Source: a bacterium
Lineage (GTDB): Bacteria > Babelota > Babeliae > Babelales > JAUWHS01
Reading direction: 5' to 3'
NCBI GenBank assembly: GCA_043818275.1
Contig: JBDRFY010000006.1
Span: forward strand, 1-32,409
DNA: 32,409 nt
Positions 7,685 to 25,820 of this stretch are shown one piece after another (within the stretch, counting starts at the first letter, position 1; each line of letters begins with the position of its first letter). A program made the position numbers and the translations under genes. Below the pieces are notes generated by a model. The model searched no databases and had not been told where the DNA came from. It saw nothing but the letters and a program-made list of their open reading frames with translations.

Positions 7685-7854
7685 CCCACCCGCTCGCCCT
7701 GAGCGTAGTCGAAGGGTTGCGAGCAATAATAAATACAAAAAAATTTATTGTTTATGTAAAAAAACATTCGTTAAAAAAATTACAATTCAATAAATAGATT
7801 TAATTAATTTACCGCTCGTAACCCTTCGACTTTGCTCAGGGCGATCGGTGTGGG
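7685..7854. repeat. REP-like inverted doublet (CCCTGAG...TCGAAGGG family)
   Basis: Arm 7685-7724 (CCCACCCGCTCGCCCTGAGCGTAGTCGAAGGGTTGCGAGC) and arm 7814-7854 (GCTCGTAACCCTTCGACTTTGCTCAGGGCGATCGGTGTGGG) are near reverse complements around an AT-rich spacer, between convergent genes. Confidence 0.9.
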
Positions 7855-11156: not shown

Positions 11157-11185
11157 TTGACAACGAACGCTGCTTTCTGTAGATT
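11157..11185 (+). promoter_or_regulatory. Sigma70-type promoter for the tRNA operon
   Basis: TTGACA (11157-11162), a 17-nt spacer, then TAGATT (11180-11185), about 46 nt upstream of tRNA-Lys. Confidence 0.7.
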
Positions 11186-11231: not shown

Positions 11232-11307
11232 GAGCCGCTAGCTCAGTCGGTAGAGCAACAGCCTTTTAAGCTGTGGGTCGCAGGTTCGATCCCTGCGCGG
11301 CTCACCA
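11232..11307 (+). tRNA. tRNA-Lys (anticodon TTT)
   Basis: Acceptor stem GAGCCGC/GCGGCTC, D-arm GCTCAGTCGGTAGAGC, anticodon stem ACAGC/GCTGT with loop CTTTTAA, T-arm GGTTCGATCC and encoded CCA. Confidence 0.97.
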
Positions 11308-11347
11308 TCCTGCGCACCGCGAATAGCGGCGCTTCGGATGGCAGGCC
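11305..11347. repeat. Palindromic element fused to the tRNA-Lys CCA end
   Basis: CCATCC-TGCGC-ACCGC-GAATA-GCGGC-GCTTC-GGATGG-CAGGCC. It aligns with the copy at 19305-19342. Confidence 0.8.
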
Positions 11348-11348
11348 A

Positions 11349-11411
11349 GTCATCTTCGCATGCTAAAACTTCAAAGAATATTCTGCGAAGTTTTAACGAG
11401 GTCGAAGGTGA
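11349..11411. repeat. Second GTCAT-initiated long hairpin in the tRNA spacer
   Basis: Outer stem TCATCTTCG/CGAAGGTGA, middle stem TAAAACTTC/GAAGTTTTA, inner AGAAT/ATTCT. Confidence 0.7.
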
Positions 11412-11430
11412 AAACAGATTGATATTTCGC

Positions 11431-11507
11431 GTCCCCATCGTCTAGCCCGGTCAGGACCCAGGATTTTCATTCCTGTAACAGGGGTTCGAATCCCCTTGGG
11501 GACGCCA
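11431..11507 (+). tRNA. tRNA-Glu (anticodon TTC)
   Basis: Acceptor stem GTCCCCA/TGGGGAC, anticodon stem CAGGA/TCCTG with loop TTTTCAT, T-arm GGTTCGAATCC and encoded CCA. Confidence 0.97.
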
Positions 11508-11601
11508 GTCATTTCTCAAAGCCAACCAGAAAACAATCTTTTCGGGTGTGATTTACTTAAATTAAAAAATTTAGTTTTTTGTATGAAATGACTGGCAGGC
11601 C
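11504..11601. repeat. Palindromic element fused to the tRNA-Glu CCA end
   Basis: GCCAGTCATTTC ... GAAATGACTGGC is a 12-bp perfect inverted repeat, followed by AGGCC. It has the same TGGCAGGCC tail as the tRNA-Lys element. Confidence 0.8.
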
Positions 11602-11652
11602 TCTCTTCTAAAATCATAATATTTATTGTCTAATTATACTTGCAGGAAAATC

Positions 11653-11898
11653 ATGTTTTATGTTTATTATCTAAGATCAGTAAGTTATCCAGAAAAAACA
11701 TATATTGGTTATACAAGTAATCTTAAACAAAGGTTTGCATATCATAATGCAGGAAAGTCTGTTTATACCGCTCAGTTTAAGCCGTGGAAAATTATTGGAT
11801 TTCTTGGATTTGATCAAGAAGTAAAAGCGATTAATTTTGAACGTCATTTAAAATCAAATGCCGGCCGAATATTTTTACGACGTTATTTTTGTGATTAA
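11653..11898 (+). CDS. Small standalone GIY-YIG nuclease (UPF0213/YhbQ-like)
   Basis: FYVYYL...TYIGYTSNLKQRFAYHNAG...YT...KPW...A..FE..LKS, with the catalytic Tyr, Arg, His and Glu present. ATG 11653 follows AGGA. Confidence 0.92.
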   Translation: MFYVYYLRSVSYPEKTYIGYTSNLKQRFAYHNAGKSVYTAQFKPWKIIGFLGFDQEVKAINFERHLKSNAGRIFLRRYFCD

Positions 11899-11915
11899 TG
11901 GAGTGTTAACTGTAA

Positions 11916-12020
11916 TTAATAGTGTTTTTGGGTTTTTCAGATAAACTTAAAGCAACCAGTTTTGAAAAATATTTAAAATCTGGTGCAGGAAGAGCCTTTG
12001 CATCAAAACATTTTTTGTGA
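11916..12020 (+). pseudogene. 3' remnant of a second GIY-YIG gene
   Basis: Translates LIVFLGFSDKLKATSFEKYLKSGAGRAFASKHFL*, which aligns ungapped with IIGFLGFDQEVKAINFERHLKSNAGRIFLRRYFC of the intact copy. The 5' half is absent. Confidence 0.85.
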
Positions 12021-12076
12021 TAATTTAATTTAAATTATTTATATTGCCTTAAATTTAATTAAATAAGGAAAAATGC

Positions 12077-12835
12077 ATGAAGATTATAAAAAATATTTTA
12101 CTGGTTGTAGGACTATTTTTAGGAGCTAGTATCAGTTTTGCATTTAGCGCCACGGCCAAAAAGACCGAAAACCCTAATGCTTGGGTGCCTACAGGTCCCA
12201 CTCGCGAAGATATCGAGGCAGGCAATTTCCGTTCTCACGATATGTTTGAAAAGAGGGATAGATGGAAGGAACTTAAAGTGGCCATTGAAAAAAACGATCT
12301 TACAAAAGTTAAAGATCTGATTGTCAAAGGCGTTGATCTTGAAGTTACAGATTATTTTGGTAACACTGCTCTAATGATGGCTGCAAAAAACGGTTATGCT
12401 GATATCGTCAGCGAACTCATAAACGCAGGGGCTGAAATTGGTACTGCTATGTATACGATGTATGCTAATGGTGAGACAGCGCTTTTTTATGCTTGCAACG
12501 GTGGCCATACTGAAACCGCAATAATTCTTATAAATAAAGGTGCTGCTAAAAAAGAGCAGAATTTAGAACACCTTTTTACATCTGCCATGGCTGAAGGCCA
12601 TCGTGAAACTGTAATAACTCTTATAAATAAAGGTGCTGCTAAAGACGAAAAGAATTTAGGAAGCCTTTTTACGTCTGCCGTATTTGAAGGCGATAATGAA
12701 ATGGTTAAAGCTCTTATTGACGGGGGTGCTATCTTTGATCGTTTTACCATACAAATTGCCTCGATGAGCCAAAAGTGCTCTGTTGAGATTATGGCTAAAA
12801 TCAATAACCTCCCTCCTGAATCTGTTTCCAATTAA
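12077..12835 (+). CDS. Secreted ankyrin-repeat protein
   Basis: Signal peptide (ASISFA) and ankyrin repeats GNTALMMAAKNGYADIVSELINAGA and GETALFYACNGGHTETAIILINKGA. It is visibly more GC-rich than the flanking genes. Confidence 0.9.
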   Translation: MKIIKNILLVVGLFLGASISFAFSATAKKTENPNAWVPTGPTREDIEAGNFRSHDMFEKRDRWKELKVAIEKNDLTKVKDLIVKGVDLEVTDYFGNTALMMAAKNGYADIVSELINAGAEIGTAMYTMYANGETALFYACNGGHTETAIILINKGAAKKEQNLEHLFTSAMAEGHRETVITLINKGAAKDEKNLGSLFTSAVFEGDNEMVKALIDGGAIFDRFTIQIASMSQKCSVEIMAKINNLPPESVSN

Positions 12836-12859
12836 AGGTTCACATACCTATTAGTTTGG

Positions 12860-12909
12860 GCCGTCATCCTATGCTCTTCGCTAAAGCTTGTAGCTACGGA
12901 TGACAAGCC
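12860..12909. repeat. GTCAT-type palindromic element
   Basis: GCC-GTCATCC-TATGCTCTTCGCTAAAGCTTGTAGCTAC-GGATGAC-AAGCC, with the same architecture and a similar tail as the tRNA-associated hairpins. Confidence 0.75.
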
Positions 12910-12920
12910 ATTATTCTCCA

Positions 12921-12980
12921 AGTTTTCAACTACTTAAATCAGAGTTTTTGCTAAAAACTTTTTTTGGTGATAATTTAACT
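12921..12980 (+). pseudogene. Highly decayed third GIY-YIG 3' end and leader module
   Basis: AGTTTTCAACTACTTAAATC-AGAGTTTTTGCTAAAAACTTTTTTTGGTGATAATTTAA aligns with 11958-12028 (AGTTTTGAAAAATATTTAAAATC...AGAGCCTTTGCATCAAAACATTTTTTGTGATAATTTAA), with a deletion of about 10 nt. Confidence 0.65.
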
Positions 12981-13026
12981 TTAATCGGTTTAATCATGTT
13001 AAATCCAAAAAATTTAGAGTAAAACC

Positions 13027-13230
13027 ATGACAAACAAATTTTTAGGAATCTTTCTGCTTCTCCTCGGTTTATCTTTTTTTATCCCGGCAGTATTCAGAAT
13101 CTTCATGAAATTAGCTGTTATTTTTTTAGGTCTGTTTTTAATTTACAAGGGATTGCAATTAGTAGGTGCTCATTCAGTTTTATTTCATGTTGACAGATTC
13201 ATTGATCGAATAATGACTTTATTTCAATAA
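13027..13230 (+). CDS. Small two-TM membrane protein
   Basis: 67 aa with two hydrophobic helices, and an apparent paralogue of 13357-13596. Confidence 0.75.
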   Translation: MTNKFLGIFLLLLGLSFFIPAVFRIFMKLAVIFLGLFLIYKGLQLVGAHSVLFHVDRFIDRIMTLFQ

Positions 13231-13356: not shown

Positions 13357-13596
13357 ATGGCTGACATGGAAAAATTTAAAAACTGGGGAACAAACAATCT
13401 TACAGGAATTCTTGCAATAATAGCTGGACTAATTTTATTCATGATTACATACAAAATGATTTTAAGCATTTTGATTTTCTTTTTAGGAATAAGTCTAATT
13501 TATTTTGGATTACTAAAATTAAGAATCACCGTTATTACAAATTTTATTGATAAAGTGATTGCGAGTATCAAAAATTTTTATTCTTCTAATAGATAA
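13357..13596 (+). CDS. Small two-TM membrane protein
   Basis: 79 aa with an AAGGAG RBS. It shares the GI....GL..F...FLG..LIY.GL pattern with the upstream gene. Confidence 0.8.
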   Translation: MADMEKFKNWGTNNLTGILAIIAGLILFMITYKMILSILIFFLGISLIYFGLLKLRITVITNFIDKVIASIKNFYSSNR

Positions 13597-13601
13597 CAAA
13601 A

Positions 13602-13679
13602 AGATCCTGAATCAAGTACAGGATGACAAAGAAAAGTTGATTTTTCCTATTTTGTCATCCTGTACTTGATTCAGGATCT
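13602..13679. repeat. Perfect REP doublet (GTCATCCTG family), likely a bidirectional terminator
   Basis: 29-bp perfect inverted repeat AGATCCTGAATCAAGTACAGGATGACAAA (13602-13630) / 13651-13679 with a 20-nt spacer. Each arm is itself an imperfect hairpin, and the pair lies between convergent genes. Confidence 0.92.
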
Positions 13680-13714
13680 CTTTATTTAATCAAAATAAAA
13701 TTTCCAATATCTTC

Positions 13715-24788: not shown

Positions 24789-25307
24789 TTAAATAGTTAT
24801 TTTTTCAATTTCACTTTTGAATTGTTTATAAAGATCATTAAAATCTGAACATATAACTTTTGTTTCTCCAATTGTAGCTAAAAAATTTGTATCCCCACTC
24901 CATCGTGGAATTATGTGAATATGAAAATGTGATGGAATTCCTCCACCTCCAGCAATTCCTGTATTAAAACCAACATTGAAACCTTGTGGTTTTAAAACAT
25001 TTTGGACAATTTTAATTCCGGAATTTACAACATCCATCATTTCATTTCGAACTTTTGAAGAAAAATCTTGAAAATCTGGCTTATGCTCAAATGGAATAAC
25101 CATTAAATGACCGGCATTATATGGATAAAGATTCATAACTAATGCGCAATTATCAAATCTTTTAATTATGAAATATTTTTCATCATTATTTTCTGCAAAC
25201 TGGCTACAAAAAACACAATCTTTTTTATTTTTTTTCTTTTTTTCATTTTCAATATGCACTGTACCAGAAACATATTTATGCCGCCATGGTGCATATATTT
25301 TTTTCAT
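24789..25307 (-). CDS. HIT-family hydrolase (Ap4A hydrolase/phosphorylase-like)
   Basis: YAPWR, CVFC, NLYPYNAGHLMVIP, GFNVGFN and HFHIHIIPRW. Confidence 0.93.
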   Translation of the reverse strand: MKKIYAPWRHKYVSGTVHIENEKKKKNKKDCVFCSQFAENNDEKYFIIKRFDNCALVMNLYPYNAGHLMVIPFEHKPDFQDFSSKVRNEMMDVVNSGIKIVQNVLKPQGFNVGFNTGIAGGGGIPSHFHIHIIPRWSGDTNFLATIGETKVICSDFNDLYKQFKSEIEKITI

Positions 25308-25631: not shown

Positions 25632-25820
25632 TTTATTTCAGGATCCACTCTCAATTAAACTAACAAAAATTATAAATATCTCTAATTGCATACTTCTATT
25701 TACAAAAATAAAACAATTCAAAAAGCCAAACATCGATCCTGAAACAAGTTCAGGATGACAAAAGAAAAATTACATTTCTTTTTATCATCCTGATTATCTC
25801 AATAAATCTAAAATTCGTAA

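Follow-up and report, generated by a model that had tools for sequence, protein, structure and literature searches.

What brings foreign genes to the end of a tRNA gene, and leaves them stacked there, at a locus that encodes no integrase or transposase of its own? The question is raised by a 32,409-nucleotide contig from a member of the Babelales (GenBank assembly GCA_043818275.1, contig JBDRFY010000006.1; we refer to this whole stretch as the window). Behind a tRNA-Lys/tRNA-Glu pair in the window, a first-pass annotation had listed hairpins, a gene for a small GIY-YIG nuclease, decayed pieces of similar genes and an ankyrin-repeat gene, and had taken nuclease and hairpin for a mobile unit that captures cargo in the manner of an integron without an integrase. 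The source genome (G000, in which the window is contig C6) is 1.33 Mb long, with 30.8% GC and 94% completeness; other C numbers denote its other contigs, G001 a genome of the same genus, further G numbers relatives, and L numbers fetched loci. The parts are present in the listed order, and on balance we favor the view that the locus is a stack built from two elements, a serine-integrase island and small hairpin-GIY-YIG cassettes, for each of which the CCA of tRNA-Glu is the target. The array is genuine, but its cargo gene was probably captured by something other than the nuclease.

Comparison of the interval between tRNA-Lys/tRNA-Glu and mscK among relatives, as the annotation had proposed, provided an empty version of the site. 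In the window, tRNA-Lys(TTT), with an encoded CCA (11232–11307), is followed by tRNA-Glu(TTC) (11431–11507), which is the target gene and the left boundary of the inserted DNA, and the far end of the array abuts genes for membrane proteins of 67 aa (13027–13230) and 79 aa (13357–13596); all of these, and the other parts of the array except where noted, lie on the plus strand. In G001 the order is tRNA-Lys, tRNA-Glu, a hairpin of the kind we call type A, about 30 bp, homologues of the 67-aa and 79-aa genes (64% and 77% identical, respectively), and mscK. Because this empty site holds both membrane genes directly behind the tRNA-Glu hairpin, they are residents and not cargo; homologues lie behind tRNA-Glu in L032, L033, L035, L043, L045, L049 and L050 as well (those of the 67-aa gene in L032, L033 and L035, those of the 79-aa gene in six further loci). 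Relative to G001, the window carries about 1.5 kb of extra DNA with one cargo gene, the ankyrin-repeat gene (12077–12835), which is absent from the G001 site and, as had been noticed, is richer in GC than its surroundings (39.1%, compared with 24.6–36.9% in eight other window genes). With the membrane genes resident, the unit of hairpin, GIY-YIG, leader and cargo that had been seen as recurring in the window occurs with real cargo once, not three times. Across 20 tRNA-Glu loci of relatives the gene content behind the tRNA varies widely, and it does so also where there is no hairpin or GIY-YIG (L034, L035, L036 and L045). The absence of an integrase or transposase from the locus held up, with none found among the 25 open reading frames (ORFs) of the window in a Pfam scan, and an Rfam scan returned no family above cut-off except the two tRNAs. 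As a separate observation, L033 (G007) contains two tRNA-Glu genes (anticodons TTC and CTC) 1.5 kb apart with near-identical hairpins, which enclose a GIY-YIG gene, a homologue of the 67-aa gene and a small gene pair.

Two kinds of hairpin, A and B, can be distinguished, each of which pairs with the CCA of the tRNA. A gene-less copy of type A is fused at the CCA of tRNA-Lys (11305–11348 with its tail, the hairpin proper being 11305–11341), where CCA pairs with TGG, and type B stands behind tRNA-Glu (11504–11601, the hairpin proper being 11504–11596), with a perfect 12-bp stem that includes the GCCA of the tRNA and a 69-nt loop. Of the 25 matches to the type-A hairpin in G000, 22 begin exactly at the CCA of one of the 46 tRNA or transfer-messenger RNA (tmRNA) genes, compared with 0–2 in shuffles; the other three are a copy at 12864 in the window, one that follows a site resembling a phage-type attachment (att) site on C73, and one that is apparently due to chance. 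The two variable bases of the type-A stem are paired on both sides in 36 of 50 distinct copies, with covariation that includes G-T pairs. Scored with a strict pattern, the type-A hairpin is present in 34 of 35 relatives that have a full-length nuclease gene and in 6 of 25 that do not; here, as in all counts of genomes with or without a cassette, hairpin or att site, the genomes are kin and not independent.

The intact nuclease gene (11653–11898) encodes 81 residues that match PF01541 with 48.4 bits (cut-off 22.6) and no NCBIfam model. Its residues Y17, R27, H31 and E63 are invariant among 37 aligned proteins, its predicted structure (mean predicted local distance difference test score, pLDDT, 95.7) is that of a bare catalytic domain with no DNA-binding extension, and its best solved matches, by sequence and by fold, are Slx1-like. 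Its closest relatives come mostly from Babeliales/Dependentiae. We assembled a set of loci from the best matches in 61 genomes, 21 further loci (less duplicates) and the G000 paralogues. In this set 68 of 96 genes of the window subfamily lie no more than 400 bp downstream of a tRNA or tmRNA end on their own strand, compared with none of the 17 genes of another small GIY-YIG subfamily, figures in which one of the 96 genes probably belongs to that other subfamily and truncated tRNAs are missed. All four intact genes of the window subfamily in G000 sit 137–312 bp behind a tRNA end.

The two hairpin types go with different nuclease clades. The window gene belongs to a clade, B, with a Shimodaira–Hasegawa-like approximate likelihood-ratio test (SH-aLRT) support of 98 in a quickly built tree (108 rows, 79 columns). 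The type-B hairpin, with a GTCATT stem (one variant), accompanies 17 of 18 clade B genes and no A-clade gene, and a small separate clade has a TTCATT stem. Among metagenome loci, 10 of 11 further B-like ones have a CATT-type stem (one of them decayed), and the A-like ones with upstream DNA have type A in all five cases. Clade B is found in 16 of 251 genomes, from 16 genera in 7 families, and tRNA-Glu and tRNA-Arg are its usual sites. In four hosts its gene is 77–81% identical to that of the window, whereas aspartyl-tRNA synthetase (AspRS) is 50–56% and the proton-pumping pyrophosphatase (H+-PPase) 59–64% identical; in G001, AspRS is 75% and H+-PPase 87% identical, yet there is no clade B gene. 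Since gene identity exceeds that of AspRS and H+-PPase, and a genome of the same genus is without the gene, these comparisons point to horizontal spread of clade B.

In two loci with type-B hairpins upstream of the gene, L058 and L071, the outer pairs of the hairpin mirror the left neighbor (a T-loop motif in L058, CTC/GAG in L071). The displaced type-A hairpin of the window (12864–12910, the hairpin proper being 12864–12903), in which CCA/TGG is altered on both sides to TCA/TGA, behaves like these outer pairs. It seems that the right arm of the hairpin is copied from, or corrected against, the left arm.

A candidate signature of insertion lies on the far side of the gene. Nine of 100 cassettes have a copy of the tRNA end 53–90 bp after the gene, and none has one on the opposite strand. 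Six of these copies are exact over 18–19 nt, on tRNA-Arg, -Leu, -Phe, -Ser and -Met; they start at T-loop base A58, with GTTCG and an inverted hairpin in front of each. The hairpin that follows the tRNA-end copy of L022 is unlike the first one. Because related genes bear copies of different tRNAs, the target itself was the likely template of the copy. In L012, in L115 and on C73 a GIY-YIG 3′ remnant is joined to the same right end, at about the same TT(T/C)G|A register. The placement of hairpins at CCA, of genes behind tRNAs and of these copies agrees with the proposal that nuclease and hairpin behave as a mobile unit landing at tRNA CCA ends, and we consider it likely, as far as sequence comparison can tell, that the small hairpin-GIY-YIG cassettes insert themselves at CCA.

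Older copies appear to have been displaced downstream and to have decayed to 3′ ends, as had been suggested; almost every partial GIY-YIG copy is a 3′ end. The second GIY-YIG piece of the window, remnant 2 (11914–12021), covers about residues 47–79 of an older gene and scores 66.8 bits against a DNA profile of 86 GIY-YIG genes from which that of the window was left out. This remnant is solid by sequence. In the quick tree it falls among A-type genes, outside clade B, and therefore B would be the newcomer at the site. The third piece, remnant 3 (12941–12984), fared less well. It does not score significantly against the family DNA profile (−0.6 bits), and the case for it is a match to remnant 2 and its leader at 37 of 45 nt; among 1087 leader regions two score as high, remnant 2 itself being one of them. 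Its score against remnant 2 is 49, compared with at most 37 against any of 86 intact gene ends. We regard it as probable, if weakly so, that remnant 3 holds the last codons, with leader, of a second displaced A-type gene. Between the window and L065 the sequence is shared without a break through gene B and the remnant (69.6% identity over 382 bp).

The suggestion that retained 3′ ends activate cargo by supplying a promoter was not borne out, with no enrichment as a group among 14 remnants (p = 0.07) or 81 A-type ends (p = 0.22); remnant 2 itself has a sigma-70-like site at 11997–12024 in the 97th percentile. A candidate promoter site of the tRNAs lies at 11157–11185, upstream of tRNA-Lys. In another locus (L030:1471–1514) a GIY-YIG 3′ end runs straight into an inverted copy of itself, and a fold-back of this kind suggests that synthesis was self-primed.

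The origin of the ankyrin gene is suggested by a feature that the annotation had overlooked. Right after the ankyrin stop codon lies an att-like site (12838–12866), which ends in a copy of the tRNA-Glu end and which we take as a probable attR. Of the 12 nt before the displaced hairpin, 9 match the end of tRNA-Glu, the best of 46 ends, and a match of 7 of 9 outside the trinucleotide occurs at 30 of 81,201 sites. With a matrix built from 61 sites of other genomes, the window site ranks 56th of 151,658 positions ending in CA, and the same matrix finds three clearer att-like sites on C50 and C73. The family of sites is present in 51 of 251 genomes (8 in a backward control) and is often tandem. In homologous units in G112 and G227, the ankyrin gene behind tRNA-Glu ends, at its stop codon, at a clear site of the form GTTCTAAAATAGTC-N12-CCA or a close variant. 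Thirteen of 56 att sites lie within 30 bp of a stop codon on the same strand.

Four long att-ended islands could be traced back, and all four begin with a large serine recombinase gene (PF00239, PF07508, PF13408) that overlaps the end of the matching tRNA. Matches to this recombinase are found in 83 of 251 genomes, and the family is represented in L246–L249 and L252–L281. Among its 30 best loci, 29 have the recombinase gene overlapping the tRNA 3′ end and abutting CCA (tRNA-Arg 17, -Glu 6, -Asn 4, -Ala 2), an arrangement that is common across the order, and none of the 29 junctions has a hairpin between CCA and the gene; the family could possibly be used as tRNA-targeting integrases. We considered and set aside a tyrosine integrase as the mover of cargo: two islands have one near the att site, but the four traced islands show the serine recombinase at the tRNA junction. 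The three PF00589 matches of G000 all lie on contigs other than that of the window.

Among the 56 att sites, an A or B hairpin follows 19, a GIY-YIG gene or piece follows 11, and a GIY-YIG lies within 2.5 kb upstream of 7, whereas 29 have neither hairpin nor GIY-YIG beside them by the patterns used, which degenerate hairpins would escape and which were applied to flanks that in many cases extend only 1.5 kb. The ankyrin family, sought by scoring up to 17 candidates per genome, has matches in 11 of 251 genomes. Of nine members inspected, four lie behind tRNA-Glu, one behind tRNA-Asn and four without a tRNA in view; a GIY-YIG gene adjoins two of the nine, and the three closest homologues (45–50% identity) have none within 1.5 kb. 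These data speak against capture of cargo by the nuclease in place of an integrase. Because the att site is shared with serine-integrase islands, the serine recombinase would be the better candidate for the enzyme that moves units of hairpin, GIY-YIG, cargo and att site. Such units recur in the window, on C50 and in G162, G110 and G155, and in G035, from another family, tRNA-Glu is followed by hairpin B, gene B, a member of the same ankyrin family and a 3′ remnant. To judge from these arrangements, cassette and cargo do travel together at times.

Several other loci show related layouts. On C50 (67622–69388), tRNA-Arg, a type-A hairpin, an intact GIY-YIG gene, one 398-aa gene and a perfect att-like site form a clean twin of the window unit. 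On C73 (13338–31556), tRNA-Asn, a type-A hairpin and a GIY-YIG 3′ remnant are followed by about 18 kb of genes with att-like sites at 24998 and 31556, the last of which precedes a type-A hairpin; this is likely an accreted island without an integrase. L226 (G069) and L227 (G158) are tandem arrays in which three att-like sites 0.7–2.2 kb apart each close one to three genes, and in L226 the 30–40 bases after the tRNA are repeated behind each site.

We propose the following history. The site would at first have read tRNA-Glu, hairpin A, GIY-A and membrane gene. A serine-integrase island that probably brought the ankyrin gene, and whose integrase would have been lost afterward, would have integrated at the tRNA end and pushed hairpin A and GIY-A downstream behind attR, after which an A-type and later a B-type cassette may have landed at the restored CCA. 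Deletions starting beside hairpins would have taken away the side that bore the integrase as well as the 5′ portions of the older nuclease genes, and the island may have decayed as cis-mobilizable elements (CIMEs) do (PMC5704250). Of the ends that a CIME would keep, tRNA-Glu is intact and the far site is decayed, and the left arm of the island is not seen; in the homologous units of G112 and G227 the far site is clear. By analogy with SsnA and Slx1, the nuclease might nick single-stranded, folded DNA at the T-loop of the tRNA (G57|A58) and near the CCA hairpin, and host repair might then copy the cassette in and duplicate tRNA bases 58–76. A bolder version of this scheme, which we hold only tentatively and think more apt to fail than to stand, is that the 81-residue Slx1-like nuclease is the whole enzyme of a transposase-free element that reads T-loop and CCA, duplicates bases 58–76 and co-evolves with its own hairpin, and that pairs with serine-integrase att sites to form integron-like units without an integrase that move single genes between distant intracellular bacteria.

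Several observations weigh against a stack of two elements. No tRNA-end copy is found within 900 bp in 91 of 100 cassettes, including the B cassette of the window. The att site of the window is decayed; it is not in the list of profile hidden Markov model (HMM) matches, and none of the first 7 nt of the tRNA 19-mer match. G000, at 94% completeness, has no match to the cognate serine recombinase. In G112 and G227, which have no nuclease gene at the site, a CCA hairpin stands at the tRNA, so hairpins may help to move the ankyrin unit, and in 7 of 9 genomes a second cargo family has a hairpin or a GIY-YIG gene or remnant in front of it, beyond what independent hitch-hiking would give. This last association is also among the grounds for the original idea that GIY-YIG nuclease and hairpin alone capture and stack cargo, together with the recurrence of hairpin-GIY-cargo units closed by a tRNA-end copy in the five places named above, the presence, in the window, G035, L057, L162, L075 and G052, of a gene with an intact GIY-YIG on one side and a 3′ remnant or another copy on the other, and the lack of an integrase gene (of the tyrosine family, the one checked) at the array in 8 of 10 genomes. 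We nevertheless consider it unlikely, given that the att family ends serine-integrase islands, that about half of the att sites have no hairpin or GIY-YIG by the patterns used, that variable genes lie behind tRNA-Glu without either in the four loci cited above, and that the closest ankyrin homologues have no GIY-YIG nearby. A further possibility is ordinary island accretion and decay, in which hairpin and nuclease ride islands without being mobile themselves and the hairpin is an RNA trailer of the pre-tRNA. This would suit the covarying stem with its G-T pairs, the preference of clade B for tRNA-Glu and tRNA-Arg, which the recombinase also uses, and the identical hairpins found after both tRNA and att site in G112 and G155. 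It is improbable in our judgment, since it does not sit well with exact, host-specific duplications of 18–19 nt on five tRNA species, where no recombinase is seen and the right end is different, nor with hairpins that follow many tRNA species beyond the four of the recombinase, that were not found in 20 of 61 genomes and that are missing from all 29 recombinase-tRNA junctions.

Incoming DNA might instead be anchored by homology to the tRNA gene and joined illegitimately on its far side, so that the resident cassette would lose its hairpin and 5′ half to the incoming sequence, with the nuclease merely biasing the outcome. The near-exclusive survival of 3′ ends and the DNA shared continuously between the window and L065 are as this would predict, and the window encodes an ATPase of the type II secretion system (T2SS)/pilus kind and a prepilin-like protein; DNA uptake in this bacterial group is putative, however, and the exact 19-nt duplications from A58 and the right-end hairpins fused at one register in L012, L115 and C73 would be left unexplained, so that we give this account little credence. 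One ancient tandem duplication of a single GIY-YIG gene, one of the circumstances that the annotation had named as counting against it, could account for the greater likeness of remnants 2 and 3 to each other than of remnant 3 to intact gene ends, but it is already contradicted by the empty site and the tree: remnant 2 falls outside clade B, gene B is common to distant hosts, and the site in the same-genus genome has none of this. We regard it as very improbable. A serine-integrase island overlaid by self-inserting cassettes remains the reading that we prefer.

Other features of the locus and genome bear less directly on these questions. Between the two tRNA genes is a second small hairpin (11364–11395, no strand assigned), a module that also occurs in the loops of other repeats of G000. 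At 13595–13686, and again near 25759, the window has a 36-bp inverted pair that is a CGTC/GTCAT-type repeat, with 27 matches in G000 and absent from this position in G001; none of the seven PF01541 matches in G000 was seen flanked by it, and no partner gene for it was found. The second small GIY-YIG subfamily (C18:20566–20781 and C75:30799–31071 in G000), none of whose 17 members stands behind a tRNA, lies between inverted copies of a repeat from yet another, third family, which has 50 matches in G000 (two of them in the window, near 7689 and 25442); this gene-between-hairpins layout is like that of Ssn but uses another repeat. The ankyrin gene contains an internal 93-bp duplication (12503–12688, 82% identical) that is missing from the G035 homologue. 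We do not call it a Dot/Icm effector, as NCBIfam effector models were only touched, far below their cut-offs.

Stand-alone bacterial Slx1-like GIY-YIG proteins are abundant and sparsely characterized, according to the Ssn authors (PMC11893778), and the locus offers a testable substrate for them: a hairpin for each nuclease clade, a predicted nick at G57|A58 in the T-loop and a 19-nt duplication. If the proposal is right, the mobile element in question would be very small, and it might yield new single-strand nucleases specific for hairpins. The data also point to a common family of large serine recombinases that uses tRNA CCA ends in small-genome bacteria and that would explain the pile-up of accessory genes such as ankyrins at tRNA ends. 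We found no description of a GIY-YIG/hairpin cassette at tRNA ends in the literature searched, most subscription journals lying outside its coverage.

The nearest known system is Ssn. The first-pass annotation had held that standalone GIY-YIG nucleases of the UPF0213 type have no clear function and CGTC/GTCAT-type palindromes no assigned mobilizer, a statement outdated since 2025, when small nucleases of the GIY-YIG kind were matched with CGTC-type hairpins (Chenal et al. 2025, PMC11893778). According to that paper, SsnA cleaves single-stranded DNA just 5′ of its hairpin, Ssn homologues each have their own repeat, an origin from a mobile element is conceivable, and Slx1-like proteins form a sparsely characterized sister clade of Ssn (supplement). 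The window nuclease, at 81 aa with PF01541 and intact catalytic residues, falls within the Ssn definition by size and domain (<150 aa), and it too is a single-domain GIY-YIG of <100 aa beside a hairpin repeat. Its best solved relatives are Slx1-like, however, and its hairpin is tied to, and pairs with, tRNA CCA ends, whereas tRNA is never mentioned in the main text of PMC11893778. The hairpins had been assigned to the CGTC/GTCAT-type repetitive extragenic palindromes (REPs), but they are of the two CCA-pairing kinds described above, and the published degenerate pattern for the Ssn repeat, SRM, has no match in the window or in G000. Like REP/REPIN-RAYT systems and the CGTC REPs (Di Nocera et al. 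2013, PMC3733652), they are short imperfect palindromes whose gene-less copies far outnumber genes; GIY is not mentioned in the accessible text of that 2013 survey. REPs are dispersed, whereas nearly all type-A copies begin at a tRNA or tmRNA CCA, and the partner here is a GIY-YIG and not an HUH tyrosine transposase, HUH/Y1 genes not being adjacent at the locus (G000 was not searched for RAYT). CIMEs resemble the locus in having lost their integration genes, as no recombinase is present there; in contrast to what PMC5704250 describes, the large serine recombinase gene overlaps the tRNA end, units often comprise one or two genes, and a second, selfish cassette uses the same CCA.

The occupied and empty alleles of a conserved target, together with horizontal spread, are what is expected of a homing endonuclease. 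Free-standing phage GIY-YIG homing endonucleases such as SegB reportedly lie near tRNA genes and are proposed to spread by cutting and repair, but the window protein is a bare catalytic domain with a cognate hairpin, occupies many tRNA species and leaves a target duplication. Integrons consist of tandem one- or two-gene units, each closed by a recombination site, and depend on IntI and attI/attC. The tandem units described here resemble them in holding one or two genes and in being closed near the stop codon by a sequence like a recombination site; they differ in that the window has no IntI among its 25 ORFs and no attI/attC hairpin pair, in that its unit holds a single cargo gene, and in that what closes the units is a degenerate tRNA end, which they have in common with serine-integrase islands. 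Set beside these systems, the cargo layer alone is ordinary island accretion, and what is new is the empty site, the co-variation of hairpin and nuclease, and the integrase origin of the cargo boundary.

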